64,000 bases of DNA from an uncultured Planctomycetia bacterium (GTDB lineage: Bacteria > Omnitrophota > Gorgyraeia > Duberdicusellales > Duberdicusellaceae): the NCBI GenBank assembly GCA_964634935.1, contig CAZWJT010000004.1, positions 30,915-94,914 of the forward strand. Direction: 5' to 3'. Under the pieces are notes generated by a model. The model was not told where the DNA came from. It saw only the letters and a program-made list of their open reading frames with translations, and made no database searches. The stretch's first letter is position 1. Each line of letters starts with the position of its first letter. The position numbers were made by a program, and so were the translations under genes. This document shows, piece after piece, positions 30,066-63,351 of the stretch.

Positions 30066-30138
30066 GCGCCCATAGCTCAAAAGGATAGAGCGCAGGCCTC
30101 CTAAGCCTGACATCGCCGTTCGATTCGGCGTGGGCGCA
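30066..30138 (+). tRNA. tRNA-Arg (anticodon CCT)
   Basis: A manually folded cloverleaf. The acceptor GCGCCCA pairs with TGGGCGC, the D-arm is GCTC/GAGC, the anticodon stem is CAGGC/GCCTG with loop CTCCTAA (U33, CCT, A37), and the T-arm is CGCCG-TTCGATT-CGGCG. The discriminator is A, and no CCA is encoded. Confidence 0.85.
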
Positions 30139-30171
30139 GATATGACTGCTCTTCTAGAACACAAATTCTGC

Positions 30172-30199
30172 TTGCTAATTCAACAGGTACGATTATAAT
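30172..30199 (+). promoter_or_regulatory. Near-consensus promoter TTGCTA-16-TATAAT driving the glycosylation locus (leaderless/short-leader start at 30212)
   Basis: Seen in the sequence between the tRNA and the first GT2. There are only ~12 nt from the -10 to the ATG and no SD. Confidence 0.45.
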
Positions 30200-30211
30200 A
30201 AAAACAATTCA

Positions 30212-31189
30212 ATGAGCGAACCAGTCCTTTCTGTTATAGTTCCAATCTACAACGAAGAAGAAGTGCTTCCTCACTTATACACACAAACAAAAACAGTCCT
30301 TGAACGGCTTGCTGTTCCATATGAAATCATTTTTATTGACGACGGAAGTAAAGACGCATCGCTCTCCCTGCTGAAAAAGTTCTCTCAGGAAAATCAGGCA
30401 GTAAAAATCATTTCTTTTTCAAGGAATTTCGGTCATCAGACAGCGCTTACGGCTGGTTTACAGTTTACTTCAGGAAAAGCCGTTGCGATTCTCGATGGAG
30501 ATCTCCAAGACCCTCCAGAGGTAATCGAGAAATTTTTTGAACAATGGAAGAACGGCTACGAAGTAGTATACGGAATACGGTTGAACAGAAAAGAGAATCC
30601 CCTGAAACGCATTCTCTATAAACTCTATTACCGCCTCTTGCGAATCCTTTCAAAAACGGTCATTCCTCTTGATAGCGGAGACTGCTGTTTAATGGACCGG
30701 ACTATTGTGGCTCTCTTGAACAAAATGCCTGAACGAAACCGCTTTATCCGTGGGCTGCGGAGCTGGGTTGGATTCCGTCAGATTGGCATTCCCTATGATC
30801 GCGATAGGAGATTTGCCGGAAAACCAAAATATACATTATTAAAATTAGTCAGGCTTGGGCTAGACGGAATAATTTCTTTTTCCGAAATCCCCTTGAAAGG
30901 ATCAATTATCATCGGCTTTTCCATCTCCACGCTGAGCGTTTTCTATTCCCTCTATATCATTCTCAATCGTCTCTTTCACGCCACCGATCGCCTCCCCGGA
31001 TGGTCAACCATCGTTGTAGCGATCACATTTCTCGGAGGTATCCAGCTTATGGTGATGGGCTTTCTCGGAGAATATGTGCTCAGAATTTATGATGAAATCA
31101 AAGGAAGGCCTCAGTATATTATCGATTCGCTTATCGGATTCAACGCCCACGCTCATGCCGAAGATATCAGTAATCATTCCCGCCCATAA
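30212..31189 (+). CDS. GT2 polyprenyl-phosphate glycosyltransferase (GtrB/CsbB/ArnC-like) with C-terminal TM anchor
   Basis: The LSVIVPIYNEEE...IIFIDDGSKD...DGDLQDPPE motifs of DPM1-like GT2 are present, with two C-terminal TM helices. Confidence 0.85.
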   Translation: MSEPVLSVIVPIYNEEEVLPHLYTQTKTVLERLAVPYEIIFIDDGSKDASLSLLKKFSQENQAVKIISFSRNFGHQTALTAGLQFTSGKAVAILDGDLQDPPEVIEKFFEQWKNGYEVVYGIRLNRKENPLKRILYKLYYRLLRILSKTVIPLDSGDCCLMDRTIVALLNKMPERNRFIRGLRSWVGFRQIGIPYDRDRRFAGKPKYTLLKLVRLGLDGIISFSEIPLKGSIIIGFSISTLSVFYSLYIILNRLFHATDRLPGWSTIVVAITFLGGIQLMVMGFLGEYVLRIYDEIKGRPQYIIDSLIGFNAHAHAEDISNHSRP

Positions 31190-32105
31190 TGCCGAACGAT
31201 ATATCCACGATTGCCTCAAATCACTCCAGAGTCAAACATTTAAAGATTTTGAGATTATCGTTATAAACGACGGATCAAATGACACAACGGCAGCCTGTGC
31301 TGCCCCGTATGCGCGCGTTATTACCACTCCGCATCGGGGAATCGGAGCCGCCCGAAACACCGGAGCACAGCATGCCCAGGGGGATATTCTTGTCTTTACC
31401 GATTCGGATGTGGTTGTGCCTTCTCGATGGCTTGAAAGAATCGAACAGACGATGCGTACACGGCAGATTGAATGTTGCGGAGGAGGATACTGTGGGAGCA
31501 TCGGAAACTCCTTTCTTGAACTCTTTGCCTATTATGAATTGGCATATCGCCGGAAAAAAATTCCGGATTTCGTCCATACGCTTGTCGCGAACAACTTTGC
31601 TTGTTCAAAAACAGTATTCTTTGCTTCTGGGGGTTTTCCGGAGAAATACACCTGCGAAGACATGCGGCTTTCTTTCCGAATCAGTCGAACCAATAAAATT
31701 TTCTGGGATAAAGAAAATTGCGTCTTCCATCACTTTAAAACAGATTTCAAGGCATACCTACGGCAACAATTCCGATTTGCAAGAGATACGGTCATCGCAT
31801 ATATCCAAGACCCTGCGATGTTCTTGGTCCAAACCCATCAAGGGAGAGGAATCTACTCTGAAGTGTGTTGCTGTTTCGGAATAGGAGCAACACTTTTTCT
31901 TAAACCCCTTTGGTCGCTGTATTTTCTTCTCTTGATTGTACTAATAAACAGCTCGTTTCTCCGCTTCCTTGCCGGACAACATATGCCCCTCAGGAAAAGT
32001 ATTTTGATTATCCTTGCCCGTGACGGCTCTGCTACGTGCGGAGTCCTTATGGGAATTCCTCTGGCCTTGTGGGAACTCGGGAGAAATCTATTGAAAAAGA
32101 AATGA
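31155..32105 (+). CDS. GT2 family glycosyltransferase fused to C-terminal polytopic membrane domain
   Basis: KISVIIPAHNAERYI...EIIVINDGSNDTT...DSD (DxD). The C-terminal ~100 aa are hydrophobic. The start was chosen at the internal Met, overlapping the upstream gene by 35 nt. Confidence 0.75.
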   Translation: MPKISVIIPAHNAERYIHDCLKSLQSQTFKDFEIIVINDGSNDTTAACAAPYARVITTPHRGIGAARNTGAQHAQGDILVFTDSDVVVPSRWLERIEQTMRTRQIECCGGGYCGSIGNSFLELFAYYELAYRRKKIPDFVHTLVANNFACSKTVFFASGGFPEKYTCEDMRLSFRISRTNKIFWDKENCVFHHFKTDFKAYLRQQFRFARDTVIAYIQDPAMFLVQTHQGRGIYSEVCCCFGIGATLFLKPLWSLYFLLLIVLINSSFLRFLAGQHMPLRKSILIILARDGSATCGVLMGIPLALWELGRNLLKKK

Positions 32106-32165: not shown

Positions 32166-33161
32166 ATGATCTTCGTCACAGGAGCAAATGGTCATATTGG
32201 AAGCCATATCGTAAAAAACCTTTTAGAGCATGGCTATCAGGTACGCGCATTCTGCCGTCCCGGATCACAAAGGAAAGCGCTTGAAACGATTTTACAGAAT
32301 ATCGAGATTGCCGAGGGGGATATCCTCAATCCTGTAAGTGTTGAACACGCCATGCGCGGGTGCGAAGGGGTAATCCATACCGCAACTCTCTTTTCCGTAA
32401 ATCCGTCACTCACCGAAGTAATCCTCAAAACAGCGGTTGAAGGATCTTTACATGTTGCGAAGGCGGCTTCTTTGCTCGGGGTGAAAAAATTTGTCTACAC
32501 CAGCTCCACAGCAGCGGTGGGCTCTTCTCTAAATCCTGAGGTTTTACTCGATGAAAACTCTTGGAACACACAACCTGGAAATGTCTATACTCGAGCAAAA
32601 ATAGAGGCGGAGCAAAAGCTTGTATCCTTTGCGAAGGAAAGCGGCCTGCCACTCATACGGGTGTGTCCGTCAACCGTTGTTGGACCCGGTGATTTTCGCC
32701 TCACGCCTTCAAATGCTCTCCTTAAAAAATTCATTGCACCATTTACCTTTTTCTATTTCCTCGGAGGAACGAATCTTGTGTTTGTTCGAGACATCGCTGA
32801 AGGCCACCGATTAGCCTACGAAAAAGGCAAAAGCCTTGAACGCTACATACTCTCAGGTACGAATACGACCTTCAACAATCTGACCCAACGCATTGACGCT
32901 TATCTCGGCAAGAAGAATATGCGCATATGCATGCCCTCAGCAATTCTTCTTGGAGGAGGACGAATCTGCGACTTCTTAGGCTCTATCACCGGCGCTTCTA
33001 TGCCGGCAAGTTATAAAGCCTTGAAAACACATCTTGGGTATTACTATTATTTCTCAAACTGCAAGGCGCATGAACAACTTGGGTTTACCCCTTCTACCCT
33101 AGAGCAGTTTTTACCGGAAACATTGGCCTGGATTATGAAAACTACTGCAAAGCGGCGATGA
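32166..33161 (+). CDS. NAD(P)-dependent epimerase/dehydratase (extended SDR, HpnA/DFR-like)
   Basis: A GANGHIGSHIV Rossmann motif and a YTRAK catalytic YxxxK. Confidence 0.85.
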   Translation: MIFVTGANGHIGSHIVKNLLEHGYQVRAFCRPGSQRKALETILQNIEIAEGDILNPVSVEHAMRGCEGVIHTATLFSVNPSLTEVILKTAVEGSLHVAKAASLLGVKKFVYTSSTAAVGSSLNPEVLLDENSWNTQPGNVYTRAKIEAEQKLVSFAKESGLPLIRVCPSTVVGPGDFRLTPSNALLKKFIAPFTFFYFLGGTNLVFVRDIAEGHRLAYEKGKSLERYILSGTNTTFNNLTQRIDAYLGKKNMRICMPSAILLGGGRICDFLGSITGASMPASYKALKTHLGYYYYFSNCKAHEQLGFTPSTLEQFLPETLAWIMKTTAKRR

Positions 33162-34681
33162 AAATACTGATCGTTAATCCGCCATTCTATCGACTCCAAC
33201 GCAGTTCGCTTGTGCATTACCCTCCTGGATGTTGCTACATGGCTGCAGTTCTTGAAAAAGCCGGATTCGCCTCTCATATCTATAATGCAGATTACGATCC
33301 AAGAAAAAATACAATCCTTGGAAACACCAACCATATTAACGTACGAGCGCTCACTGAACTTTCAGACGAATACGAACAGCGGCTGGCGAATGACGCAGAT
33401 CCAATCTGGCAAGAGGTGACTGCATACCTAAAATCTACAAATCCGGATGTTTTGATCATCAGTATTTTCAACACAACACTTACGGCTGGAATTAAAATCG
33501 CCCAGAAAGCAAAAATAATCAATTCATCAGTAAAAATTGTTTTTGAGGCAAGCACAAACCGCGGCCTCCACTGCGCGCTTGATCCTGCAGTGAGCGTCGA
33601 TCCAAAAAATATGGACTTTGCCCTGCGAAAAGAGCCAGAAGAAACCATAGTTGAACTTGTCCGCGCTCTTACTGAAAATGCCACTGATTTTTCTTCAATC
33701 CAGGGACTGAGTTGGAAAAATAACCAAGGAATACTCATCCATAATCCAGATAGACCGCCACTACAGAATCTGGATCTCCTCCCATTTCCCGCACGCCACC
33801 TACTTGATGGACATGAAAAAATGCCTCCCCACACATTCCAAGGTATTTATGGCTCTCGGGGATGTCCCTTTGATTGTATTTTTTGCGGTTGCCATACAAG
33901 CTGGGGTTATATGCCTCGATTGCGTTCAGCAAAAAACATGGTCGATGAGATTGCATTCGTACACAAGCGCTTCAGAACTACTTATTTTTATATTTGCGAT
34001 GACATTTTTTTTATTCAAAAAGATAGGGCAAGGGAATTCTGCGAGCTGATACTTGAGAAAAAACTTCCCGTTTATTGGTCGGCACAGACCAGAGCAGAGA
34101 TGGCTGATGAAAAAACCCTGCGGCTCATGAAACAAGCAGGAGGACAGCACATTGCCGTCGGAGTAGAAGTAGGCAACCCCCATGTCCGCGAACTTATCCG
34201 CAAAGGCAACACCGTTGACGATGTGCGTCGATGTGCTCGTCTCATCAAAAAAACCGGGCTACACATGGTTGCTTTTTGCATGATTGGACTACCTTGGGAA
34301 GGAGAAGAAGAAATACAAGATACAGTGCGCCTGATTAAAGAAATTGACCCGTATATCGTTTATCCTTACATGCCTACCCCGGCAAGCGGAACCGAATTAG
34401 CAAAAATCCTTACCGAAAAAAACCCCATAGGGTTCGCCCAATATCGCGATCGTTGTCACATCAACACCTCTGCAACGCTTGCCGAACGGCTCAGCCCGGA
34501 ACTCAAGAAAAAAGTAATCGAGAAAGCTCTTATGGAGTTTGTTAAAATCAACAGGAAAAATTTACTTTTTGATCTGATGCGGCGGCCACAATTCTATATC
34601 GCCCTGGCGCATGATATGCGTTTTTTCACACATCCAAAGTTTCTTTTCTATTATTTCCGCGACTATTGCAAACCGTCTTAA
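33158..34681 (+). CDS. B12-binding domain radical SAM protein (class B)
   Basis: 507 aa with an N-terminal B12-binding-like domain and a GSRGCPFDCIFCG CX3CX2C motif. A 4-nt overlap with the upstream epimerase. Confidence 0.85.
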   Translation: MKILIVNPPFYRLQRSSLVHYPPGCCYMAAVLEKAGFASHIYNADYDPRKNTILGNTNHINVRALTELSDEYEQRLANDADPIWQEVTAYLKSTNPDVLIISIFNTTLTAGIKIAQKAKIINSSVKIVFEASTNRGLHCALDPAVSVDPKNMDFALRKEPEETIVELVRALTENATDFSSIQGLSWKNNQGILIHNPDRPPLQNLDLLPFPARHLLDGHEKMPPHTFQGIYGSRGCPFDCIFCGCHTSWGYMPRLRSAKNMVDEIAFVHKRFRTTYFYICDDIFFIQKDRAREFCELILEKKLPVYWSAQTRAEMADEKTLRLMKQAGGQHIAVGVEVGNPHVRELIRKGNTVDDVRRCARLIKKTGLHMVAFCMIGLPWEGEEEIQDTVRLIKEIDPYIVYPYMPTPASGTELAKILTEKNPIGFAQYRDRCHINTSATLAERLSPELKKKVIEKALMEFVKINRKNLLFDLMRRPQFYIALAHDMRFFTHPKFLFYYFRDYCKPS

Positions 34682-34685: not shown

Positions 34686-35720
34686 ATGAGCCTAGTACAG
34701 AAAGCTTCATTTCTCGCATCTCTTTGCTTTGCCCGCGCTCTGCACCGGAGAATTCCTTTAACTGTTATTTTTAATATTACGGATCACTGTAATGCCAATT
34801 GCGGTTATTGTTACGCGCGCTATTTTCAAAGAAATCTCCCGGAACTCGGAATTCAAGAGATAAATACAATCCTCTCTGAATTGAGAACGATGGGATGCAA
34901 ACGGATAAGCCTTGGAGGAGGAGAGCCGCTTCTGCGCAAAGACCTTGCCAGAATTATTGAAGCAATAAAGAAAAATGGGATGGAATGCATTATAAATTCA
35001 AACGGAATACTTGTCCCAGAGAAAATAGAGATATTGCGCCGGGTAAACGCGCTCTGCATCAGCCTTGACGGCCCAGAAAATGTACATGATACATACCGCG
35101 GGAAAGGAAGCTTTCAAAAAGTACTCCTTGCGATTGAAACTGCTTCCGCGCATAGAATACCCCTTCATACCAACACTGTCCTCCACCATAACAATATCAA
35201 CTCGATCGACTTTATCCTTACACTCGCAAAAAAATATGGTTTTTTTGCTGAATTTAATATCGCGATAGCACCACTTTCTGAAACGAACAAGGCTGCTCCC
35301 TACAAAGCCTCTGAAGAAGAAATCCGCACAACAATGCGAAAACTCATTCAATACAAAAAAGCAGGTCACAACATTCTTTTTTCCAAAAAAGCATTTGAAC
35401 TCGCCTTAGCTTGGCCAGACTATGGCAAAGAATCGCTGCCTAGCATACCAAACACTCAATATCCGGCATGCGCCGCGGGAAGTTATTTTTGTTTCATTGA
35501 TACTGATGGAGGAGTATACGCGTGCCCGCATTTAATCGGAAAAGTTCAACCGCTTAAAGCACAAGATGGATTTCGACAGGCCTTCGAAAAACTAGCGCGG
35601 CCTTCGTGCTCAGCTTGTTATCAAGTATACCACAACGAGTTTAATCTACTCTTTAATCTTGATATTGAAGTAATCGCTAATTACGGGCTTAATACAATCT
35701 TGCGGTTGTTTCGAAAATAA
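34686..35720 (+). CDS. Radical SAM/SPASM-domain protein, paralog 1 (subfamily A)
   Basis: CNANCGYC (CX3CX2C) near the N-terminus, the GGGEPLLRKD motif, and a C-terminal Cys cluster (CAAGSYFCFIDTDGGVYACPHL...CSACYQ) of SPASM/twitch type. Confidence 0.85.
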   Translation: MSLVQKASFLASLCFARALHRRIPLTVIFNITDHCNANCGYCYARYFQRNLPELGIQEINTILSELRTMGCKRISLGGGEPLLRKDLARIIEAIKKNGMECIINSNGILVPEKIEILRRVNALCISLDGPENVHDTYRGKGSFQKVLLAIETASAHRIPLHTNTVLHHNNINSIDFILTLAKKYGFFAEFNIAIAPLSETNKAAPYKASEEEIRTTMRKLIQYKKAGHNILFSKKAFELALAWPDYGKESLPSIPNTQYPACAAGSYFCFIDTDGGVYACPHLIGKVQPLKAQDGFRQAFEKLARPSCSACYQVYHNEFNLLFNLDIEVIANYGLNTILRLFRK

Positions 35721-35725
35721 ATAGC

Positions 35726-36754
35726 ATGAGCATCCAGAACCGTTTCGCATTCATGGCGCGTTTGATCAAAGACCGGATTTCCGGAAAGGCAACACCGCTC
35801 GTTGTGGTGCTCAATACTACATTTCGCTGTAATTTACGTTGCGGGTATTGTTATGGTCAATACTTCCAAAGAACTGACGAAGATTTTACCACCGTTGAAC
35901 TTCTGGGACTGATCGACGACCTGAGTAAATTAGGAACTCGTTCGATCACCTTGGGGGGTGGTGAGCCTCTTCTGCGCCAAGATATTGGCCAAATTATCGA
36001 TAGGATAAAACAACACGGCATCGAATGCGGGATGAACACAAACGGCATACTGATTCCTCAACGGCTAGACATGTTGAGGAAAATTGATATGGTAACAATT
36101 TCAATTGATGGACCAAAGGAATTGAACGACCGCAACAGAGGAGACGGATCCTTCGAAAAAATCATGGCCGGCTTAGAAGCGGCCCTGGCTGCAGATATAA
36201 AAGTACACACAACTACAGTGCTTACAAAACATAACTACCAGGCAATCGATTGGATTGTTGACATGGCCAGGAGAAAAAAAATTCAGGCGGAATTTAATTT
36301 CTTGTTTCACCAGAATCGGGGAAAACATGAATCCGACACTTTCATGGCCGAGGAGACATCTCTCAGAAAAGCAGCTGAACGTATCGTCGAACTCAAGAAA
36401 AAAGGAGCGCCTATTCTATTTTCAAAGAAGATCTACCAATGGGTGGCGCGCTGGCCTGATTATAAAAAGAGGATCATCCAACAAAAATCCAGATTGAAAA
36501 CCAGACTGTGCAATGCGGGAAGATTTATGATGTTCATTGATGCTGACGGAAAAGTCTATCCGTGCGTCCAGCTGATTGACGTATTTCCTGCCTTAGAATT
36601 TCGTTCCGCTGGAATCGAGAAAGCATGGCGTCACACCCATATCCATAATTGCTATGCTTGTTATTTTCCATGTTTTAATGAATTCAATGCGGTTTTTAAC
36701 CTAGATCCGGAAATCCTCTTAGAACAAATAATGAGTACCTTACAAAATCATTGA
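35726..36754 (+). CDS. Radical SAM/SPASM-domain protein, paralog 2 (subfamily A)
   Basis: CNLRCGYC, GGGEPLLRQD, and a C-terminal CNAGRF...DADGKVYPC...CYACYFPC. It is clearly paralogous to 34686-35720. Confidence 0.85.
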   Translation: MSIQNRFAFMARLIKDRISGKATPLVVVLNTTFRCNLRCGYCYGQYFQRTDEDFTTVELLGLIDDLSKLGTRSITLGGGEPLLRQDIGQIIDRIKQHGIECGMNTNGILIPQRLDMLRKIDMVTISIDGPKELNDRNRGDGSFEKIMAGLEAALAADIKVHTTTVLTKHNYQAIDWIVDMARRKKIQAEFNFLFHQNRGKHESDTFMAEETSLRKAAERIVELKKKGAPILFSKKIYQWVARWPDYKKRIIQQKSRLKTRLCNAGRFMMFIDADGKVYPCVQLIDVFPALEFRSAGIEKAWRHTHIHNCYACYFPCFNEFNAVFNLDPEILLEQIMSTLQNH

Positions 36755-37807
36755 ATGGGAAGCCTATTTGAAAAAAATCGATTCTTCTTAGCCTTGCTGA
36801 AAGGGCGCGTCTTAAAACAATCAATCCCTCTCCTGGTATTTTTTACTATCACTCATCGCTGTAACGGATCATGCCCATATTGTTTCGGGGCATATGAAAA
36901 TCCGGGAGGAAAAAATGCTGGTTTTGAGCTGAATACCGAACAAATTTTTTGCCTTATTGATCAGATGGCGGCGGCTGGAACGCAGCGCATTGGAATCAGC
37001 GGAGGAGAACCGCTTTTGCGCGACGATATCGGGAAAATAATCGATTATGCGGCTCAAAAAAAGATTCACTGCGGCCTCAACACCAACGGGTATCTCATAC
37101 CTCAGAAAATATCCGAACTTGCTAAACTAAGCAATATCACGATCAGCCTCGATGGCGACATGTTTGAACATGAACAAAATCGAGGAAAAGGCACGTATGA
37201 AAAAACAATTCTCGCGATTGAGCGGGTAAAACGCCAGAAAATTCCCCTCCATGTAAGCATGGTACTTACTCGGCACAATATGAACAGTATCCCTTTTATT
37301 CTGGAGCGTGCAAGAAAAACCGGATTCCTGGTACAAATTAGCCCGCTCTATCCTTGCGTACTCCCCGAAAAGAACAATAATTCTCTACAGCTAAGCGATG
37401 AACAACTTCGCCGAATACTCCAGCAAATTATAACTTATAAGCGCAAGGGATACCCTGTTTTTTACTCACAGACGACATACTCTCGGATTCTTTCTTGGCC
37501 TGATCTCCAGAAAGACCGCTACCTTGGAGAAAAACCGAGGTTTCCCCATGCTCCGTGCGTCATGGGAAAATACGCCTGCCTTTTAGATGCAAACGGCGAT
37601 GTCTACCCATGCGCTCAAATTCAAGGCTTAACCCCAAAAAATGCCTTAAGTATAGGGTTTAAACGAGCTTTCCAGCACATCAATAAACATCTTTGTCGCG
37701 CCTGCTCGTGGGCTTGTTACAATGAGTTGAATCTCTTGGCGCAGTTAAATCCCGAAGTAGTCATGAACACGATTAGCAATATTTTGTTTGACAAAAATCA
37801 TGCCTGA
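36755..37807 (+). CDS. Radical SAM/SPASM-domain protein, paralog 3 (subfamily A)
   Basis: CNGSCPYC, SGGEPLLRDD, and a C-terminal CVMGKYACLLDANGDVYPC...CRACSWAC. Confidence 0.85.
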   Translation: MGSLFEKNRFFLALLKGRVLKQSIPLLVFFTITHRCNGSCPYCFGAYENPGGKNAGFELNTEQIFCLIDQMAAAGTQRIGISGGEPLLRDDIGKIIDYAAQKKIHCGLNTNGYLIPQKISELAKLSNITISLDGDMFEHEQNRGKGTYEKTILAIERVKRQKIPLHVSMVLTRHNMNSIPFILERARKTGFLVQISPLYPCVLPEKNNNSLQLSDEQLRRILQQIITYKRKGYPVFYSQTTYSRILSWPDLQKDRYLGEKPRFPHAPCVMGKYACLLDANGDVYPCAQIQGLTPKNALSIGFKRAFQHINKHLCRACSWACYNELNLLAQLNPEVVMNTISNILFDKNHA

Positions 37808-39952: not shown

Positions 39953-39956
39953 AATT

Positions 39957-52252: not shown

Positions 52253-52254
52253 CC

Positions 52255-55654: not shown

Positions 55655-57111
55655 ACCAAAAAATCATTCTTGCCACAGTAAACGCAAAGAAAGATCTCTA
55701 TTCAGTCACCGCAGACGAATTCTCGGCGATAGCGCCCAATGTTCAACTTGGCCTTCTCGGTGCGTATATCAAATCAAAAAATATCAACGTGCGAATTATC
55801 GATTCTGAAGAAGAACGACTTTCCATCGACGATTTAATCAATCTCGTGAAAAAGGAAAAACCTTTGCTCTTGGGAATTGTTGCTACGGGCGCAAATCCAT
55901 CTTCTTCTACAATGGTCATGGCCGGAATCGTTGATTTTTTTAAAAAATTCAACATGACAAACTCCCCGGTAAAAACTTTTATCTGGGGACCTCACCCCAC
56001 AGTGCTTCCTGAACGCTCACTCAAAGAAACCCAGGCAAGCTTTATCGTACGCGGAGAAGGGTATGAAACTATTGTCAACTTATTTTATGCTTTACACCGG
56101 GGACAGGAAATCAACCAAATCAAGGGGCTTTCTTACATTGAAAACCAGAACGGTTCAATCCAATATTGCCACACCCCCGATGCCGAACTAATTAAAAATC
56201 TTGATTCTCTCCCGATGATTGACTGGCAAGCGATGAACCCGTCAAAATACCGGGCTCATAATTGGCACTGCTTTGGAAACCTTGAGAACCGCACGCCCTA
56301 CGCAATTATCTGGACAAGCTTTGGGTGCCCTTTCCAATGCAATTACTGTTGTATTAATAATCTCTTCGGCAGAAGGATACAGCGTTTCCGCAGTATCAAA
56401 AATGTGATAGAGGAGATAAGCCTTCTCGTCGAGACCTATAAGGTCAAGAACATTAAAATTCTTGATGAGCTCTTTGTCGTCAATCCCCAGCGCATCGAAG
56501 AATTCTGTGACCGCCTGGAAGAAAAAAGATATTCTCTCAATATGTGGTCATATTCCCGCGTCGACACCATATCGGAACGCCTCCTGAAACGGCTCAAAAC
56601 AGTGGGGATGAATTGGATTTCTTATGGTTTTGAAACCGCCACTCCTCAGATGCTTGACAATATAGAAAAAGGATGCAAACGAGATGTCGATGCCGTAATC
56701 AAAATGACCCAAGAAGCCGGAATTTCAATTTGCGCGGATGTAATGTTTGGACTCCCTGACGACACCATCCAAACCATGGAACAAACCTACGAGTTTCTGG
56801 TGCGCCATAATTTTGAATGGGTTAATATGTATCCGATGTTCGCTTACCCAGGAACCAAGCTCTATGCTGAGTCAAGCGAACCGGAATCATGGAAAACGTA
56901 CGCACTCTATGGAGCAGACTGCATTCCCATGGGTACAAAACATCTCAGCCCTCGGGCAGTACTGAAGTTTCGCGATGAAGCCTTCAGCAGATATTTTGGA
57001 CGCCCTGAATATCTCGCTATGATCGAAAAGAAATTTGGGGTGTCTACCCGAGAACACATTCAACGGATGATTGCCATCCCTCTACGACGCAAACTGCTGG
57101 AACAACAATGA
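55651..57111 (+). CDS. B12-binding domain radical SAM protein (class B)
   Basis: 486 aa with an N-terminal B12-binding-like domain and a TSFGCPFQCNYCC CX3CX2C. It is coupled to the neighbouring genes on both sides by ATGA overlaps. Confidence 0.85.
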   Translation: MNQKIILATVNAKKDLYSVTADEFSAIAPNVQLGLLGAYIKSKNINVRIIDSEEERLSIDDLINLVKKEKPLLLGIVATGANPSSSTMVMAGIVDFFKKFNMTNSPVKTFIWGPHPTVLPERSLKETQASFIVRGEGYETIVNLFYALHRGQEINQIKGLSYIENQNGSIQYCHTPDAELIKNLDSLPMIDWQAMNPSKYRAHNWHCFGNLENRTPYAIIWTSFGCPFQCNYCCINNLFGRRIQRFRSIKNVIEEISLLVETYKVKNIKILDELFVVNPQRIEEFCDRLEEKRYSLNMWSYSRVDTISERLLKRLKTVGMNWISYGFETATPQMLDNIEKGCKRDVDAVIKMTQEAGISICADVMFGLPDDTIQTMEQTYEFLVRHNFEWVNMYPMFAYPGTKLYAESSEPESWKTYALYGADCIPMGTKHLSPRAVLKFRDEAFSRYFGRPEYLAMIEKKFGVSTREHIQRMIAIPLRRKLLEQQ

Positions 57112-59387
57112 TGCGTAATCGCTCCCTGCTCGGGATTTTTTTTCTCGTAGGAGTTTTTGTCACTATCCTGCATATCGATATCATGATCCACAAGAAGCTT
57201 CCCTTCTCTCACGATACATTCCAATACTTCCAACAACAATATGTTTATTTTAATGAATTCATCACACAACGCTCAATACCATTGTGGTTTCCTTTTGTCT
57301 CCCAGGGTTTTGTAGGAAACTTTCATATAACCGGACAGTTAACCATGGCATTGCCCGTGCAATACTTAGTGGGAATTTTGTTTCCCGACATAAATTATTA
57401 TTATTTATTCCACCTAGGAATCTGGATTGAAGAAATGTTCTTCCTTTTGGGCGTAATCCTGCTAAGCTCATTCTATTATAAGAACAAAAAAACAATACTA
57501 TTCACCGCAATCACTCTCTTAGGAACAAACATCTGGTATCCGCAGATCTGGTGGAACTTTCATTTATTCTATTGGATGCCACTTACTTTATATGGCGTTC
57601 ATCGTTTCCTCAAGGAGCAAAAAATATCTTATCTCATACTTGCCTCTTTAACATTCTCGCTTACGGTTCTTGGAAACTTCATCTACTGTATTATCTTTGC
57701 CTTATTTATTCTGACAATTTATTATACGCTCTACGCTTGTTTCCATTGGAAGGAAATACTTGTTGCCGATTGGAAAAAAATACCGATAAAACATTATCTC
57801 TCATTCTTGCTCATTCTGTGCGTGCTGGCAATCAGCTTTCTATTCATAACTGTTGCCATTGATCAAATCGATTATCTACAACAAAATCGCAACACAACCG
57901 GCAAGAACACCCTCCAAACCTTTATGACCTATGGAGGCTCTCTGGGATTGCATAAATACCGAGAAATTCTCCGCCGTTATAGTTCTCCAGAAAATATTAC
58001 GCGAGATATAAATCTCTTTGCTGGGTTTTTCTTAATTCCTTTTGCCGCATTTACAGCGTTTTATTGCCGGAAAAAAATATCCTATGTAATTGCGGCCACT
58101 GCACTTGTGGTCTTCTTTTTCAGCATCGGCTCATGGATATCAGTTCTATTCTATTACTTATTTCCCGGTGGAAGTTTTTTCCGGCACATTGGATTAACGG
58201 CACCCGTTTTTAAGGTGCTCTTAGTCTTTTATGCCGGTTTTGGGTTCGAAGAATTTTGCCAGCGCGTTTCATCTTCCCGTACGCCAATTCTTGTGTTATT
58301 ACTCTCTCAGATAATACTCCTGGGGTGGTTACTCTATAAACCGTGGTTTCCGCCGCAAGAATATTTTTTCAATATCGTAAGTCCGGAAAACCGCAAACTT
58401 CTAAAAATGACTCTCTACGGAATTCTCTCTCTGAATGTAGTGGTTCTTTCGTGGTTTTTTCTTAGAAAAATGCCAAAAAATTTCCTGATCTATCTTCTCT
58501 TGGGGCTCGTTTCTCTTGATATGTTCACCTATAAATACTCTCTCATCCCGCTACGCATGCCCAAAGCTTCACCGGTATTGCTTGAGCTTTTTAAGCCATA
58601 TCGGTATGAATTCCCTCCAACGCGATTGATGAATACAAATATGGCAGTAGAAGACAATCAGCGTCTGCAATCTTTCTATTCAACCCCTTTTACTGGGGCA
58701 CGTTACAATACCATTGAATCGTTTCTCTTTATAGATTCAGCCATATCACCATTTCGCTCTGATTTTCTCCTTAAGCCACTAAAAAAGTATTTTGAGATGA
58801 TCCAGACATACCCCAATAAAAACGGGGCGTATGAAAAATATTCAGGCATTGATTACCCGAAGCTCAGTGTTTTTTCAAAACTGCACATCTTTCCAGGAGA
58901 AAAAGAGATAGGGACTGTTCTTGCTAATCCTGTTTTTGAGGGAAATGTGCTCTTTGCGCTGCAAAATGACTTTGCTCCGCTTGAATTTCCCGATAAACCC
59001 GAAGCAACCGAGTATTTCAACCAAAATAATTCTCCGCTCTTTACATACGAACGTATCCCGGCGCTTATCTCTATCAAACAGTTCAGCTACAATACATTGA
59101 AGCTTGACGTTACCACAGAAATAAACCAGAAAAATTATTTTTTGTACTACGCAGATGTTTTTCATCCTTATTGGACCGCCATCGTAAACGGGAAAAAAAC
59201 ACCGGTAATCCGCGCAAATATCGCCTATAAAGCGATCCCCATTCCTTCTGGGATTGCGAACGTAGAATTCCGATTTTCCGATTTGCGCTACCGCATATCA
59301 GCATGGACCCAGATTACAGTAATTCTGGCCTTATTGGGAAGTTGCATTTTTATCTTTTGGCGGAAACTGGTAGTGGAGAAAAACTGA
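57108..59387 (+). CDS. YfhO-family GT-C membrane glycosyltransferase
   Basis: 759 aa with about 13 TM helices, a large extracytoplasmic C-terminal domain with the YfhO-like motif FHPYWTAIVNGKKTPVIRANIAYKAIPIPSGIANVEFRF, and a terminal TM helix. Confidence 0.7.
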   Translation: MMRNRSLLGIFFLVGVFVTILHIDIMIHKKLPFSHDTFQYFQQQYVYFNEFITQRSIPLWFPFVSQGFVGNFHITGQLTMALPVQYLVGILFPDINYYYLFHLGIWIEEMFFLLGVILLSSFYYKNKKTILFTAITLLGTNIWYPQIWWNFHLFYWMPLTLYGVHRFLKEQKISYLILASLTFSLTVLGNFIYCIIFALFILTIYYTLYACFHWKEILVADWKKIPIKHYLSFLLILCVLAISFLFITVAIDQIDYLQQNRNTTGKNTLQTFMTYGGSLGLHKYREILRRYSSPENITRDINLFAGFFLIPFAAFTAFYCRKKISYVIAATALVVFFFSIGSWISVLFYYLFPGGSFFRHIGLTAPVFKVLLVFYAGFGFEEFCQRVSSSRTPILVLLLSQIILLGWLLYKPWFPPQEYFFNIVSPENRKLLKMTLYGILSLNVVVLSWFFLRKMPKNFLIYLLLGLVSLDMFTYKYSLIPLRMPKASPVLLELFKPYRYEFPPTRLMNTNMAVEDNQRLQSFYSTPFTGARYNTIESFLFIDSAISPFRSDFLLKPLKKYFEMIQTYPNKNGAYEKYSGIDYPKLSVFSKLHIFPGEKEIGTVLANPVFEGNVLFALQNDFAPLEFPDKPEATEYFNQNNSPLFTYERIPALISIKQFSYNTLKLDVTTEINQKNYFLYYADVFHPYWTAIVNGKKTPVIRANIAYKAIPIPSGIANVEFRFSDLRYRISAWTQITVILALLGSCIFIFWRKLVVEKN

Positions 59388-60874
59388 TGTGGAAAACGCT
59401 TGGCACTAAAAAAATTCTAAAAATTACCCCACTGATACAAAGCGGGTTTTTAATTCTCCTTACACTGGTTGTATTCTGGCCAAGTTTTTTTCATGTATTT
59501 CGCAATGACGAATGGCACTTTTTCTTTATTTCCCGCTTTGAAAATTTGGATTTTTCTTACATCCTAAATCACCTGGACTGGCAATTACAACTCGGCCATG
59601 ACCGGCTCTTATTCCGCCCCTTGCACCATACCGATATCGCACTAAACCGCGTGCTCTTTGATATCCACTACAGTGGTCCGCATATTCTGAATTTCATAAA
59701 ACACCTAGGCGTTGTATTTGCCCTCTGGAAACTCCTTAGCCAGACAAACCCAGGTTTGCCGGCATATCTTTTTGCCATGCTTTTTTCGGTTCTCTCGCTT
59801 GGATCTGATGCTGTATTCTGGCCACACGTAAGTGGCTATCTCTATGTATCTCTCTTTACCATTCTTGCGATTATTCTGTTACGAAAAAGTTTAACCCAAG
59901 AAACACCTTCAAAGAAAAGCCTGAGGCTCATATCGCTCTGGACGCTTCTGGCAATGTTCTCGAATGAATCGGGACTTATTTTGCCTTTTGTTCTAACCGG
60001 AATGTGCTTTATTCTCTTAAGGTCAGCTCAGAAAAAATATTTTCTTTCCTACATAACCCACACAGCGTTTATTCCACTGATTGCCTGGAGTAGCTGCTAC
60101 GGCATCCATCTATTCCTGGCATACCCGAACTGGAATATAGGATTTCAGTCGTATCTGATCCCTCTCTGGAAAATACCGAGAAATTTGTTCCGTTTTCTTT
60201 TCATGATAGTTTTTGGCATAACTATGCCTGTTTTCTCATACCCTCTCCTTGGAGATATCGTACGCTTTCTTGTGATACCGCCAGCGAAAAGAATACTCCA
60301 GGCGTGCTGCAGTGTATTCCTGGCTGCGGTTCTTATCCGTAAAACAAAAGAAAACAGAAACCATATCTTCTGCGCGTTGTTTCTTCTTATGGCAGCAGGA
60401 TTTATTATTACCGCAGGACGCTCGGCGTATGTCGACTCTTTGCTCTCAGAAAGAAAAATTGACAGCCACCATGTGTATTTTACCAGCATGGCCGCAATCT
60501 GGTTACTGTCAGAACTCACCCAGGCAAAAAACCGAAAAAGAAAAAATATGGTTCTCTTTCTTTTAATACTTGGAATTATGGCTCACAGCGCAAAAACGCA
60601 TTCGCTGGGAAACGAAATCACTCAAAAAACCGCCCCGCTTAAAAATTACTTTGACGCGGTAGCTTCCTTTGTAAAGCATCATAAGGATACGCCAAATTTT
60701 TCTTTCTTTATGCAGGAAAGGCCGCCAAAAACTCCTGTATTTTATTGGGAATCGGAACATTGTATTGATGGATTGTTTTTCCGTTATCTCAATCCGGAAA
60801 AACCGCTCTATTGGCTTTCTTATGATTTAAAAACCCAGGCTCTCACTGCACGGAAAAACGCACAACTTCAATAA
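59387..60874 (+). CDS. Polytopic membrane protein (GT-C-like / unknown)
   Basis: The start ATG 59387 overlaps the stop of the YfhO gene by 1 nt (TGATG). The product is about 495 aa with more than 10 hydrophobic helices. Confidence 0.5.
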   Translation: MWKTLGTKKILKITPLIQSGFLILLTLVVFWPSFFHVFRNDEWHFFFISRFENLDFSYILNHLDWQLQLGHDRLLFRPLHHTDIALNRVLFDIHYSGPHILNFIKHLGVVFALWKLLSQTNPGLPAYLFAMLFSVLSLGSDAVFWPHVSGYLYVSLFTILAIILLRKSLTQETPSKKSLRLISLWTLLAMFSNESGLILPFVLTGMCFILLRSAQKKYFLSYITHTAFIPLIAWSSCYGIHLFLAYPNWNIGFQSYLIPLWKIPRNLFRFLFMIVFGITMPVFSYPLLGDIVRFLVIPPAKRILQACCSVFLAAVLIRKTKENRNHIFCALFLLMAAGFIITAGRSAYVDSLLSERKIDSHHVYFTSMAAIWLLSELTQAKNRKRKNMVLFLLILGIMAHSAKTHSLGNEITQKTAPLKNYFDAVASFVKHHKDTPNFSFFMQERPPKTPVFYWESEHCIDGLFFRYLNPEKPLYWLSYDLKTQALTARKNAQLQ

Positions 60875-60889
60875 GAGCCAGGGAAAAAA

Positions 60890-61660
60890 CTAAAAGACTG
60901 ATTTTGGTTTCTTAGCGATAAAAAGCGGGCATCGAAAGATACGCAAACGGTGTAAAAAAAGGTAGAGGAGAGAAAGGAGAGTTTTTAAACCATAGATTGA
61001 ACTGGCAAAAAATTTTATTGATGATGCTTCGGTAAAGTAACGGACCGGCATCGGAATATCGCCCAAAACAAAACCATGATGCACTGCCTGGATAAGAAAT
61101 TGCGTATCAAAAACAAAATCATTGTCGTTCCGTTCAAATGCGATTACTTCTAAAACTTCCCGGCGATAAGCGCGAAATCCCGAATGAAAATCCGCTAAAT
61201 TCTGCCCTAAACACATGTTTTCAACAAAAGTAAGGAAACGATTTGCAAGGTATTTATAAACCGGCATTCCGCCCTTTAAACATTCACGCCGGGTTCTCAC
61301 CCGAGCACCCAAGACTACATCGCAAATACGCAATCGCAAAATAGTTACAGCCACAGAGATAAGCCTGCTATCGTACTGATAATCAGGATGGATCATTATT
61401 ATATAATCCGCGCCGTGCTCCAAGGCATACCGGTAGCATGTTTTTTGGTTTGCCCCATACCCTTGATTTTGGGAATGCACATATACGGATAAACCAAGTT
61501 TTTTTGCAATTTCAACGGTATTGTCGCTACTTGCATCGTCTACAAGAATAATCTCATCAACAACACCATGCGGAATATCAGCAACAGTCTTTTCTAGGGT
61601 CTTAGCCGCGTTATACGCGGGCATAATCGCTACCACTTTTCCGTTTGATTGCGTATCCAT
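60890..61660 (-). CDS. GT2 family glycosyltransferase (DPM1/GtrB-like, no TM anchor)
   Basis: [14 protein letters not shown]...[12 protein letters not shown]...HPDYQYD (DxD-like). Confidence 0.85.
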
Positions 61661-61773
61661 AAAATTTGTTTTAGTGTATTATAATCGTAAGTATCAAGAA
61701 TTACAAGCGCCTACCACAAAGTACACCTGAATCGCTTGTAATTGTTACTTTGCTTCTATATAATACAATAACT

Positions 61774-63351
61774 ATGCTGAATAATGCCATCAGTGAAAAA
61801 AAACCGAGGAATCGAAAACTCCTCAGCGTAACGCTGGTTTATGTACTTCTTGGAATTTTACTTCTCCCTGCGTACCAGCATCAAATCAACCCTGACGGCA
61901 TTTCTTATATCAATATTGCCCAGCAATATCTTTCCGGGAGATTTCAAGATGCAATTAACGGCTGGTGGGGACCGCTTTTTTCCTGGTTACTTCTTCCGTT
62001 TCTCGCCATAGGAGTTACCCCGCTTATGGCTGCTAAGATCATTTCGCTGGGAATAGGAGCTTGGAGTATCTTTTGCCTTTCCAGACTCGGAAGCATTCTT
62101 GAAATCCCGATTCGTGCGCCTCTTGTTCTTACCTGCATGATCCCTTTCATCCTGTATTGTGCGTACTCGGTCATTACCCCTGATTTTCTTCTCGCGGTAA
62201 TATTTCTGTACTACCTTGGCACTGTATACCAGAAAAATTCTGCGCTCCAACCAACACGCAGTGTTCTTTGTGGAGTCTGGGGGGCTGCTTTGTATCTTTG
62301 TAAATCATATGGATTTGTTTTCTTCCTAATCCATTTTACGCTCGTTTCAGGATACCGATTGTTCAGTTCAAAACAACCCCTTCAGCGCTCAAAAATAGTG
62401 CTTCATTTTCTCTTAACCATCACGGTATTTTTTGCGCTCAGCGGTATATGGATCGGACTCATCAGCTGGAAATACCACCGGCTTACCATTGGTGCTGCTG
62501 GAACATATAACTTTCGCCTCGTTGGACCAAAATCCCAAGGACAAGCCGTGCATTCACAAGGATTTCTCCCAATACCAAATCAAGCCGCAACAAGCGCATA
62601 TGAAGATCCTTCCTATTTTCCGACCCAACCTTGGAATCCGTTTACTTCCTGGTCTGAATTCAGACATCTCTTGAGAGTCATAGAGAATAACTCGATTGAA
62701 CTGATAAAGACACTTCAAAGATTTTCGGCTTTCTCTCTGTTGCTGATTTGCGGCACAGCTATTTCCATCGCGAAAAATTTGTGGTGGGGAAAGAAAATCC
62801 AGAAAAATATAGTTTTTATTGCCGCAAGCGGCGTACTCTATTCAATAGGATTCCTGCTCTTAATCATTGAAGAGCGCTATTTCTGGGGAATTGGATTCCT
62901 GCTGTTTTTCTTGGCACTACGGGCATCGCAAGCCCTTGCCGCGCAAACGTCTCCGCGTTTGAACGGAAAACGCGCACTCGTTGCGTTGATCTTATTGAGC
63001 TTCACGCTCATGCCCACGCAATATCTACTACGGAACCTTCAGACAAAAAAAGATATTTATGAAACAAGCTTGCTTCTTAAAAATAGGTATGCTGTGTCCG
63101 GAAATATCGCATCAAACGCGTTCTGGCATGAATCTTTGTACATTGCCTATCACCTTAGGGGAAAATACCTAGGCCAAAAATTGAAAGGCCTTTCCGGGCA
63201 GAAACTTCGCGATGCCCTGCAAAGTCTAAAAATAGACTATTACTTTGTCTGGAGCAAAACCAACTCTGAATTTGAAACTCTTGAAGGATACCCAGAAATT
63301 ACCCAGGGCGCAATACCCTATTTACGGGTTTATCGACTATGCAAAATCTGA
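61774..63351 (+). CDS. Polytopic membrane protein, putative GT-C glycosyltransferase (PMT/ArnT-like)
   Basis: The start was taken as ATG 61774, 9 nt after a TATAAT at 61759-61764; the listed start at 61750 is TTG. There are more than 10 TM helices and an N-terminal DGxSY-like loop (INPDGISYIN). Confidence 0.5.
   Translation: MLNNAISEKKPRNRKLLSVTLVYVLLGILLLPAYQHQINPDGISYINIAQQYLSGRFQDAINGWWGPLFSWLLLPFLAIGVTPLMAAKIISLGIGAWSIFCLSRLGSILEIPIRAPLVLTCMIPFILYCAYSVITPDFLLAVIFLYYLGTVYQKNSALQPTRSVLCGVWGAALYLCKSYGFVFFLIHFTLVSGYRLFSSKQPLQRSKIVLHFLLTITVFFALSGIWIGLISWKYHRLTIGAAGTYNFRLVGPKSQGQAVHSQGFLPIPNQAATSAYEDPSYFPTQPWNPFTSWSEFRHLLRVIENNSIELIKTLQRFSAFSLLLICGTAISIAKNLWWGKKIQKNIVFIAASGVLYSIGFLLLIIEERYFWGIGFLLFFLALRASQALAAQTSPRLNGKRALVALILLSFTLMPTQYLLRNLQTKKDIYETSLLLKNRYAVSGNIASNAFWHESLYIAYHLRGKYLGQKLKGLSGQKLRDALQSLKIDYYFVWSKTNSEFETLEGYPEITQGAIPYLRVYRLCKI

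Follow-up and report, generated by a model that had tools for sequence, protein, structure and literature searches.

What do the 31 closely packed genes between a tRNA-Arg(CCT) gene and rlmN in the genome of an uncultured Omnitrophota bacterium make, and did they reach that place as a foreign island? The genes occupy positions 30212-63351 of the window (the whole 64-kb stretch of DNA analysed here, from contig CAZWJT010000004.1). We propose, with moderate confidence, that they form a modular polyprenyl-phosphate/GT-C glycosylation system acting outside the cytoplasmic membrane, in which radical S-adenosylmethionine (radical-SAM) enzymes tailor the sugars, and that the locus is a native mosaic. 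An initial annotation of the same DNA had described a surface glycan or glycolipid locus. The sugar-tailoring genes, the glycosyltransferase family 2 (GT2) synthases and at least two GT-C-type proteins agree with this description, but its heptose and amino features are not supported.

Gene families were assigned with Pfam and NCBIfam profiles, and the NCBIfam scores were judged against the equivalog cut-offs. Gene names give the start coordinate in the window (g30212 and so on), L-numbers denote the related loci that were compared, and the coordinates of all features are collected in Table 1. The 31 genes abut or overlap, and 30 of them are on the plus strand; the earlier statement of about 30 same-strand genes is right except for one GT2 gene on the minus strand. 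The inventory includes five GT2 proteins, seven short-chain dehydrogenases/reductases (SDRs), a pair homologous to the alpha and beta subunits of pyruvate dehydrogenase (PDH) E1, a split transketolase, a GHMP kinase and a nucleotidyltransferase. In addition, there are a DegT-family enzyme, a TylF-family O-methyltransferase, eight radical-SAM enzymes, a protein with TIGR04076 repeats and three polytopic membrane proteins. The SDRs, the thiamine pyrophosphate (TPP) enzymes, the eight radical-SAM enzymes and the O-methyltransferase had all been named before, and profile assignment found every one of them.

The first part of the proposed system is the loading of sugars on a lipid carrier. The initial annotation had listed GT2 synthases of polyprenyl-phosphate sugars, and five GT2 proteins were found, of which g30212 is ArnC/PgfS-like and g41764 and g54016 are AglJ-like; these are matches at the level of the family. 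The g30212 protein aligned over its full length with the NCBIfam models PgfS (270 bits, its best match; cut-off 500) and ArnC (178 bits), in both cases below the cut-off. The short GT2 proteins g41764 and g54016 were 48% identical to each other in an all-against-all BLAST of the locus proteins. Meanwhile, the deposited annotation probably misses the second GT2 gene. The public gene call at 31279-31884 (L001) is a 201-aa open reading frame (ORF) in another frame, has no Pfam match and overlaps the 343-aa GT2 ORF.

The second part is the transfer of the loaded sugars by membrane proteins, and g57108 is one candidate for this step. The deposited protein begins one Met after the 759-aa start. Its family includes 34 proteins, and 6 of the 34 have a precomputed match to PF09586; by the gathering threshold, g57108 itself is YfhO-like and not a member of the YfhO family (PF09586). 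An aspartate in the first loop (D36, in HDTFQY) is invariant across the family. The AlphaFold2 model built from the family alignment (pLDDT 86.7, pTM 0.88) shows a multi-transmembrane N-terminal part, a beta-rich C-terminal domain and a terminal transmembrane helix, an architecture that we take to resemble that of the YfhO family. Furthermore, its top fold matches in the PDB are all GT-C enzymes (EmbB/EmbC, AftD, ArnT, STT3, PglB, DPY19 and ALG9), with a TM-score of 0.51 and a Foldseek probability of 0.99 for ArnT. On the basis of this model we are confident that g57108 has a GT-C fold.

The initial annotation counted two YfhO-type enzymes, and g57108 alone deserves this name. The other two membrane proteins are of different kinds. 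The g61774 protein has 2497 representative homologs, with a PMT_2 (PF13231) match in 20 of the 47 that were sampled, and its D41 (in NPDGISY) is invariant among the homologs. It is a PMT_2-related GT-C candidate beside g57108, and the earlier mention of other GT-C membrane transferases agrees with this. In contrast, g59387 is an orphan. Its sole homolog (P0040) is fused to a C-terminal FGE-sulfatase (formylglycine-generating-enzyme-like) domain, which hints at an extracytoplasmic catalytic partner. Both proteins share FWPSFFHxFRxD(E/D)WH after the first transmembrane segment, and the D(E/D) of this motif is the sole GT-C hint. Compared by hhalign with two GT-C alignments (A1 and A2), g59387 reached a probability below 7%; A1 and A2 gave no significant match to each other in the same kind of profile comparison. 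No useful match turned up when the three membrane proteins and the A1 and A2 profiles were compared with the sequences of the PDB.

The genes around g57108 belong to a cassette that recurs at other genomic places in Omnitrophota. It includes the N- and C-terminal transketolase halves, an SDR, a short GT2, another SDR, a radical-SAM gene with a B12-binding domain and the YfhO-like gene. Three long contigs carry it, from Ca. Saelkia tenebricola (GCA_030765145), from GCA_020632515 and from a metagenome (366 kb). The order there is radical SAM, B12-domain radical SAM, the two transketolase halves, FabG-like SDR, short GT2, SDR, two B12-domain radical-SAM genes and the YfhO-like gene, and the cassette genes are 40-69% identical to those of the window. 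The most constant feature is that the g55651 ortholog accompanies the YfhO-like gene, lying immediately upstream of it in 8 loci (L089-L094, L096 and L105). The surroundings vary. In Saelkia, the genes downstream of the YfhO-like gene encode a kinase, a nucleotidyltransferase and a dehydrase and then a PMT_2 protein. In the window, the 41.0-51.3 kb block separates the radical-SAM array from the transketolase, two parts between which L085 has nothing. Because a fixed core has varying surroundings, the locus appears as a mosaic in which exchangeable modules adjoin a phylum-typical core. On our best reading, the variable modules are the yersiniose/colitose-like block at 41.0-51.3 kb, the radical-SAM/TIGR04076 block at 32-41 kb and the GT2/GT-C pair at 60.9-63.4 kb. 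We found no description of this cassette in the literature searched on Omnitrophota, YfhO, radical SAM, TIGR04076 and Saelkia. In the GCA_020632515 genome (L090), rlmN lies 9.5 kb downstream of the cassette. In the gap between them (L090 15530-18218), an oppositely oriented gene for a Lon_C/Mg-chelatase-like ATPase is flanked by two ORF6N/pRha-like genes, and the three may form an insert of a mobile or defence nature.

Which sugars would such a system transfer? The initial annotation recognised a GDP-heptose module. However, the GHMP kinase scored 160 bits with the HddA model (cut-off 600), the nucleotidyltransferase scored 127 bits with HddC (cut-off 300) and matched mannose-1-phosphate guanylyltransferase best, and neither GmhA nor GmhB was found among the locus genes with NCBIfam. 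A heptose-containing product was rejected, since the GDP-heptose enzyme set is both incomplete and below the thresholds.

The DegT-family protein g48202 had been called an aminotransferase. Its His184 aligns (HMMER) with the lysine that binds pyridoxal 5′-phosphate (PLP) in the sugar aminotransferase 7b0m and with the histidine of E1, the CDP-4-keto-6-deoxyglucose 3-dehydrase (3bcx). In addition, its CKCQIC...C motif (C215/C217/C220/C229) aligns with the Cys-rich Fe-S region of this E1 (PDB 3bcx). The active site is thus of the dehydrase type, dependent on pyridoxamine 5′-phosphate (PMP), and the predicted chemistry is 3-deoxygenation and not amination. The amino feature of the product was dropped, as g48202 lacks the PLP lysine. 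The Saelkia ortholog (L089) retains the histidine and the Cys motif; the homologs in L091, L092 and L096 are of the Lys type, and distant cassettes have Lys-type aminotransferases or ColD-like SHH/AHH variants.

Two different TPP-dependent enzymes lie in the locus. By analogy, the PDH-E1 alpha/beta pair would be the donor of a two-carbon branch derived from pyruvate. The transketolase halves have orthologs of 49-58% identity in L085, L089, L090 and L094. The FabG-like SDR next to them has Phe at the position of the catalytic Tyr (PWF[SATC]MAK), both in the window and in all 4 orthologs from the same four loci; judged from this sequence motif, it may not be an ordinary ketoreductase.

The radical-SAM genes number exactly eight. 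Two of them encode B12-binding domains, five are diverged paralogs of one another, and one is of the SPASM type. The five paralogs share CxxxCxxC and four conserved C-terminal Cys residues, a pattern that indicates a single auxiliary cluster of the twitch type. Among solved structures they have only remote relatives, the nearest being PqqE, MoaA, BlsE (a nucleoside-sugar decarboxylase) and viperins, and the paralog pair at 38891 and 39903 has orthologs of 58-59% identity in L084, L085 and L087. The two B12-domain enzymes, g33158 and g55651, are 28% identical, and of the solved structures AprD4, an aminoglycoside diol-dehydratase, is closest to g55651. A search of 5.8 billion proteins gave just 4 relatives of the triple-TIGR04076 protein, which might serve the radical-SAM array as an Fe-S or electron-transfer partner. 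These relatives are all in related clusters (L083-L088), flanked by an HpnA-like SDR or a B12-domain radical SAM and by a twitch-type radical SAM, and one of the four loci continues directly into the transketolase halves, an SDR, a short GT2 and another SDR. The HpnA-like SDR g32166 has orthologs of 47-53% identity that adjoin the TIGR04076 protein in L083-L087. Two side observations concern these related clusters. A 963-aa protein with no Pfam match and no counterpart in the window lies between a twitch-type and a B12-domain radical-SAM gene in L083 (4442-7333) and L084 (1534-4425). On one metagenome contig (L088 49-213), a 54-aa ORF lies directly ahead of two B12-domain radical-SAM genes and the TIGR04076 protein.

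Could the radical-SAM block at 33-41 kb instead mature a ribosomally synthesized and post-translationally modified peptide, with no relation to the sugar genes? The top NCBIfam matches of the five paralogs include the peptide maturases StsB, WgkB, MftC and PqqE, and PqqE is also their nearest solved structure. However, all maturase scores are 80-110 bits against cut-offs of 265-650, and the single auxiliary cluster is twitch-like and not a full SPASM arrangement. Furthermore, the genes abut or overlap and leave no free small ORF for a precursor in 33-41 kb, and the block is linked to HpnA-like SDR, GT2 and transketolase genes in every related locus. We regard this explanation as scarcely credible.

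Another explanation starts from the same block. By analogy with HpnA, HpnB, HpnI and HpnJ, which tailor the side chain of hopanoids, the radical-SAM enzymes might act on lipid-linked sugars, and the product might be a glycolipid that stays free in the membrane and carries a rearranged head group, for example a cyclitol-like one. The best NCBIfam matches are indeed hopanoid-associated (HpnA at 1e-64 for g32166, and HpnJ at about 1e-48 for both B12-domain radical SAMs), the GT2 genes adjoin the HpnA-like SDR and the B12-domain radical SAM, and this SDR constantly accompanies the radical-SAM/TIGR04076 block. Nevertheless, these scores are far below the cut-offs (218 vs 368 bits for HpnA; 166 vs 578 for HpnJ, with the two B12-domain enzymes at 166-168 bits), and the window has neither a squalene-hopene cyclase nor an HpnH ortholog. 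In addition, the presence of GT-C enzymes implies that the sugar is passed on to another acceptor. A free glycolipid is, in our judgement, decidedly improbable.

We now return to the polyprenyl-phosphate/GT-C system and describe how it might work. The GHMP kinase and the nucleotidyltransferase would activate a sugar to a nucleoside diphosphate (NDP) sugar, and the nucleotide is probably GDP because guanylyltransferase-like and Fcl-like enzymes are present. In module A (41.8-51.3 kb), the E1-type dehydrase would deoxygenate C-3, the PDH-E1 alpha/beta pair would add a two-carbon branch from pyruvate, the classical SDR would reduce the branch, and the Fcl-like enzyme would epimerise or reduce the sugar. 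In the core module, the split transketolase presumably donates a glycolaldehyde unit, and two SDRs and B12-domain radical SAMs would also take part. The TylF enzyme would add O-methyl groups. The products might be deoxy, two-carbon-branched and methylated sugars, and the eight radical-SAM enzymes would contribute to the tailoring. Each module has its own GT2 of the AglJ/dolichyl-phosphate-mannose synthase (DPM) type, which would load the finished sugar on polyprenyl phosphate. The lipid-linked sugars would be flipped across the membrane, and the GT-C enzymes (g57108, g61774 and perhaps g59387) would then attach them, on the periplasmic side, to a polymer, lipid or protein of the envelope.

The radical-SAM steps may take place on NDP-sugars or on lipid-linked sugars, and the second option is worth testing because the coupling between the B12-domain radical SAM and the YfhO-like gene is strict. 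A bolder version, to which we give a small but real chance, is that Omnitrophota have a hitherto undescribed form of envelope glycosylation in which radical-SAM enzymes remodel sugars on, or about to join, polyprenyl phosphate. With the same small chance, its parts would be a B12-domain radical SAM coupled to a YfhO-like GT-C enzyme and an expandable set of twitch paralogs with the triple-TIGR04076 partner. The reactions might be C-methylation, deoxygenation or the closing of a carbocycle. Such surface sugars would be new to biology, and these nano-sized, host-dependent bacteria would possibly use them for attachment to their hosts or for evading them.

Several observations weigh against the glycosylation system that we propose. 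No GT2 or sugar-nucleotide enzyme of the locus reaches its NCBIfam equivalog cut-off, and no radical-SAM enzyme here has a known ortholog; the sugar-tailoring role of the latter is therefore read from their context. The g57108 protein scores 15.8 bits against Pfam YfhO (cut-off 28.5), with its C-terminal region only, and its Foldseek E-values are 2e-3 or worse. The model of g59387, made from a two-sequence alignment, has a pLDDT of 40 and is too poor for a fold search. In addition, the locus has no gene for an E3-type reductase partner of the E1 dehydrase, and no 4,6-dehydratase can be assigned by motif among the SDRs. Finally, no flippase (GtrA, GtcA, MATE or Wzx) was recognised among the 31 genes, which include no unassigned small membrane ORF. 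By analogy with GtcA in some Firmicutes, the flippase could be encoded elsewhere.

A different product has also to be considered. The TylF methyltransferase, the AviB1/B2-like E1 alpha/beta pair and the DegT-family dehydrase are typical of the sugar-antibiotic clusters of actinomycetes, and so are the AprD4-related B12 radical SAM and the BlsE-related twitch-like radical SAMs. They might suggest a cluster for a soluble or secreted oligosaccharide or an aminocyclitol-like natural product, with no part in envelope decoration. However, GT-B/GT1 enzymes, a synthase for an aglycone or a cyclitol, and genes for export or resistance are all missing from the locus. What it does have are five GT2s of the polyprenyl-phosphate-synthase type and two or three GT-C-like membrane proteins, and the YfhO-like gene is the most constant partner in the cassette. 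A natural product is thus unlikely, and glycosylation outside the membrane is the reading that we keep.

The remaining question is how the locus came to lie between these two genes. The tRNA gene is the only one in the window and abuts the locus as described initially, the first protein gene starting at 30212; on the other side, the locus reaches rlmN, which starts at 63339. Upstream of the tRNA are the genes for pyruvate phosphate dikinase (PPDK), a sigma-70 family factor and apt, and the left 30 kb of the window hold housekeeping genes. On the source contig (L106), the neighbourhood of rlmN includes rlmN, GGDEF/HD, pta, ackA, def, rpsP and secDF. A consensus promoter had been reported directly 3′ of the tRNA. 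A site with 10 of 12 matches is indeed there, but such promoter-like sites are no more numerous in the scanned region than in shuffled sequences, and the site alone is weak evidence.

The best matches of the PPDK come from Candidatus Omnitrophota metagenome-assembled genomes (MAGs), while the DNA of the window itself is recorded only in a single sequencing run and on an NCBI contig of 186 kb. We found the PPDK-sigma-apt block in 31 Omnitrophota loci, and tRNA-Arg(CCT) follows it in 22 of the 24 that were scanned. The relatives are distant, with at most 78% identity for PPDK and 54-66% for apt. In every relative with sequence past the tRNA, the locus is absent from that place, apart from a GT2 of unrelated context in L009 as a partial exception. 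The genes found there encode a PHP-domain protein, a protein of about 160 aa, an alginate-export-like porin, GH57 and ParA/CBM48, and they are absent from the window and from the 10 kb downstream of rlmN on the source contig. The PHP-like gene found 5′ of related cassettes is not homologous to the PHP gene that follows the tRNA in these relatives. As a side observation, the block from PPDK to ParA/CBM48 is kept in many Omnitrophota MAGs (L003-L078; for example, L006 14278-22175), and it looks like a glycogen-related neighbourhood.

Thus, in about 30 distant relatives the locus is missing at the tRNA, while a contiguous apt-tRNA-...-rlmN arrangement, for which the initial annotation had proposed to look, exists in none of them. 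The tRNA and rlmN are never adjacent in the compared relatives, and the right-hand flank differs as well. It should be noted that genomes as distant as these (PPDK at most 78%) cannot settle whether the locus is core or accessory within the genus of the window.

The composition gives no sign of a foreign origin. The GC content is 0.435 in the locus and 0.425 in the flank, and the GC at third codon positions (GC3) is 0.424 and 0.421 (Mann-Whitney p = 0.57). The correlation of relative synonymous codon usage (RSCU) is 0.95 between locus and flank against 0.89 between the two halves of the flank, and tetranucleotide correlations are about 0.95 throughout the locus and flanks. The proposed check for a skew in GC and codon usage therefore finds a locus that matches its flanks (GC3 p = 0.57; RSCU r = 0.95). 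Furthermore, no integrase, transposase or recombinase domain was found among the 31 genes with Pfam and NCBIfam, the tRNA 3′ end has no second match with three or fewer mismatches in the window, and the left and right locus boundaries share no k-mers. The earlier remark that neither an integrase nor a direct repeat is visible stands on all three counts (gene assignments, tRNA-3′-end search and boundary comparison).

Was the locus then acquired horizontally by integration at the 3′ end of tRNA-Arg(CCT), as the initial annotation had considered? The conserved PPDK-sigma-apt-tRNA block stops exactly at the tRNA in about 30 Omnitrophota MAGs with different genes beyond it, and homologous cassettes occur in other genomic contexts. 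A preprint on Omnitrophota genomes also lists cell-surface biosynthesis genes among the cargo of hypervariable regions, which would suit an island. However, the flank-like GC, GC3, RSCU and tetranucleotide profiles, the missing integrase or transposase and the missing repeats at the tRNA 3′ end and the boundaries speak against it, and the close homologs of the locus genes are all from Omnitrophota. In addition, a simple insertion does not agree with a tRNA and an rlmN that are never neighbours in relatives, and ordinary rearrangement would also explain the break among relatives of this distance. Of the island idea, the synteny break at the tRNA stands and the marks of integration do not, and we consider such an acquisition rather doubtful. 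Judged from these comparisons, the locus occupies a synteny breakpoint, varies in place and content across the phylum and looks native to Omnitrophota; it does not look like a recent foreign island brought by an integrase.

Table 1. Features of the locus and its boundaries (positions in the 64-kb window)
Feature	Position	Strand	Evidence or remark
tRNA-Arg(CCT)	30066-30138	+	ARAGORN; left boundary; closes the conserved PPDK-sigma-apt-tRNA synteny block
Promoter-like TTGCTA-16-TATAAT	30172-30199	+	10/12 matches; inside the 73-bp gap that precedes the first gene
GT2, GtrB/ArnC/PgfS-like polyprenyl-phosphate sugar synthase	30212-31189	+	Pfam GT2 3e-31; 2 C-terminal transmembrane segments
GT2, start codon uncertain	31074-32105	+	Pfam GT2 5e-31, Glyco_tranf_2_3 4e-13; 2 C-terminal transmembrane segments
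Extended SDR, HpnA-like/3beta-HSD-like	32166-33161	+	HpnA 218 bits (1e-64), cut-off 368
Radical SAM with B12-binding domain (HpnJ/BchE-like)	33158-34681	+	HpnJ 166 bits, cut-off 578
Three radical-SAM paralogs (34686-35720, 35726-36754, 36755-37807)	34686-37807	+	36-38% identical; twitch-like
Cys-rich protein, three TIGR04076-like repeats	37800-38891	+	NCBIfam TIGR04076 65 bits
Two twitch-like radical-SAM paralogs (38891-39952, 39903-41006)	38891-41006	+	51% identical
TylF-family sugar O-methyltransferase	41003-41764	+	Pfam TylF 1e-40
Short soluble GT2, AglJ/dolichyl-P-hexose-synthase-like	41764-42474	+	Pfam/NCBIfam; putative carrier loading of module A
PDH-E1 alpha (42471-43478) and beta (43487-44530) homologs	42471-44530	+	Pfam/NCBIfam
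Fcl-like 3,5-epimerase/4-reductase	44538-45470	+	NCBIfam GDP-L-fucose synthase 347 bits (cut-off 500), full length; S..YAIAK motif
GalE-like SDR	45474-46406	+	Profile match
GHMP sugar kinase	46416-47402	+	L089 ortholog 74% identity
NDP-sugar pyrophosphorylase, probably guanylyltransferase	47408-48118	+	L089 ortholog 38% identity
DegT-family, PMP-dependent 3-dehydrase type (E1/ColD-like)	48202-49395	+	His184, Cys motif
Classical SDR, candidate branch ketoreductase	49367-50212	+	Profile match
Radical SAM/SPASM enzyme	50205-51326	+	Orthologs 56-58% identity in L083, L086
Split transketolase (N-terminal half 51428-52252, C-terminal half 52192-53217)	51428-53217	+	Opens the core cassette
FabG-like SDR	53224-54009	+	Phe158 at the catalytic Tyr position
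Short GT2, AglJ/DPM-like	54016-54684	+	Putative carrier loading of the core cassette; orthologs 62-64% identity
Extended SDR (Fcl/RmlB-like)	54689-55654	+	Profile match
B12-domain radical SAM	55651-57111	+	Conserved partner of the YfhO-like gene; orthologs 64-66% identity
YfhO-like GT-C membrane glycosyltransferase (g57108)	57111-59387	+	Homolog family, AlphaFold2 model, fold matches
Orphan polytopic membrane protein	59387-60874	+	One homolog only
GT2 (DPM-like)	60890-61660	-	Pfam GT2 1e-22; sole minus-strand gene; divergent from g61774
PMT_2-related (ArnT/PMT-like) GT-C candidate	61774-63351	+	PMT_2 match in homologs; about 9 transmembrane-like segments
rlmN (5′ part)	63339-64000	+	Right boundary; housekeeping genes beyond in the source contig

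In the left flank, we also observed one stretch that differs from the housekeeping genes around it. On the minus strand at 7819-10940, a radical-SAM gene (430 aa) is followed by a gene for a 610-aa protein without a Pfam match, and the stretch has a lower GC content (0.39) and a strong skew of A over T.

The general logic of the locus, that is, nucleotide-sugar tailoring, a polyprenyl-phosphate carrier and a GT-C transferase, is known. In the literature searched, no system of this kind was found to have eight radical-SAM enzymes or two different branch donors that depend on TPP, and neither the very rare triple-TIGR04076 protein nor this cassette, which is so far restricted to Omnitrophota, turned up there. 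The Omnitrophota are uncultivated and often ultra-small, and their surface chemistry is essentially uncharted. A recent preprint interprets their genomes as consistent with a host-dependent lifestyle. From its gene content and context, the locus is a promising place to look for new sugar and radical-SAM chemistry, and the two TPP-dependent two-carbon donors, the E1-type deoxygenase and the eight radical-SAM enzymes are testable candidates. If radical-SAM enzymes act on lipid-linked sugars, this would be new enzymology; otherwise, it would be a richly decorated conventional glycan locus. In addition, the cassette could be used as a marker for surveying surface diversity across the phylum.

The locus resembles several known systems in part. 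AprD4/AprD3, BlsE and HpnJ are examples of carbohydrate-modifying radical-SAM systems, as are BtrN and GenK; B12-domain and twitch-type enzymes of this kind dehydrate, oxidise, methylate or rearrange sugars. The locus has both types, and g55651 has an SDR neighbour as AprD4 has AprD3. However, the similarity is remote (at most 54 bits to solved structures and 166 bits to HpnJ), and the five tandem paralogs with the triple-TIGR04076 protein have no described equivalent among carbohydrate radical-SAM systems.

The predicted branch chemistry parallels that proposed for AviB1/B2, for Pau11/12 with the ketoreductase Pau7 (eurekanate/paulomycose) and for YerE of yersiniose (PMC4753412). With the pathways to branched 3,6-dideoxyhexoses, namely yersiniose (DdhA-D, YerE, YerF) and eurekanate/paulomycose (PMC4753412, PMC9306805), and to GDP-colitose (ColD/ColC), taken together, the locus shares a nucleotidyltransferase, an E1/ColD-type PMP dehydrase with His for Lys, an E1 alpha/beta-like TPP pair, a ketoreductase and an Fcl/ColC-like epimerase-reductase. 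It differs from the yersiniose, eurekanate and colitose pathways in having no assignable 4,6-dehydratase or E3 reductase, and its product would pass to a DPM-like GT2 and not to a Leloir glycosyltransferase. For the second, transketolase-based module, no characterised counterpart was found in the glycan loci of the literature searched.

The Pgf system for protein glycosylation of Streptococcus mutans (PgfS, PgfM1, PgfE and PgfM2) likewise has an epimerase and GT-C-like membrane proteins beside a GT2 of the GtrB kind. However, it belongs to another lineage and envelope, the PgfS score of 270 is below the cut-off of 500, and no PgfM orthologs were detected here. Similarly, the Arn pathway of lipid A modification shares nucleotide-sugar tailoring, an ArnC-type GT2 (g30212, 178 bits) and a GT-C enzyme (ArnT is among the fold matches of g57108), but the locus has no ArnA, ArnB or ArnD orthologs, its scores are below the cut-offs and its sugar chemistry is different.

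Three-component systems are established for lipoteichoic acid (CsbB/GtcA/YfhO), for O antigen (GtrA/GtrB/Gtr*) and in Citrobacter (PPPRS/MATE/GT136) (PMC5836110, PMC8035078, PMC11127046). The locus differs from them in having no flippase gene and in bringing together, within one operon, four or five candidate synthases and two or three candidate GT-C enzymes. Its host is a diderm of the PVC (Planctomycetes-Verrucomicrobia-Chlamydiae) group and not a Firmicute, and g57108 is below the Pfam YfhO threshold. Furthermore, about 20 sugar-tailoring genes are attached, eight of them for radical-SAM enzymes, which is not described for the three systems, nor is a partnership of radical SAM and GT-C reported in them. 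Nevertheless, the proposed division of labour is the same as in CsbB/GtcA/YfhO, Gtr and GT136: a cytoplasmic GT2-type enzyme would load polyprenyl phosphate, a GT-C enzyme would transfer the sugar outside, and auxiliary enzymes would diversify the sugar.

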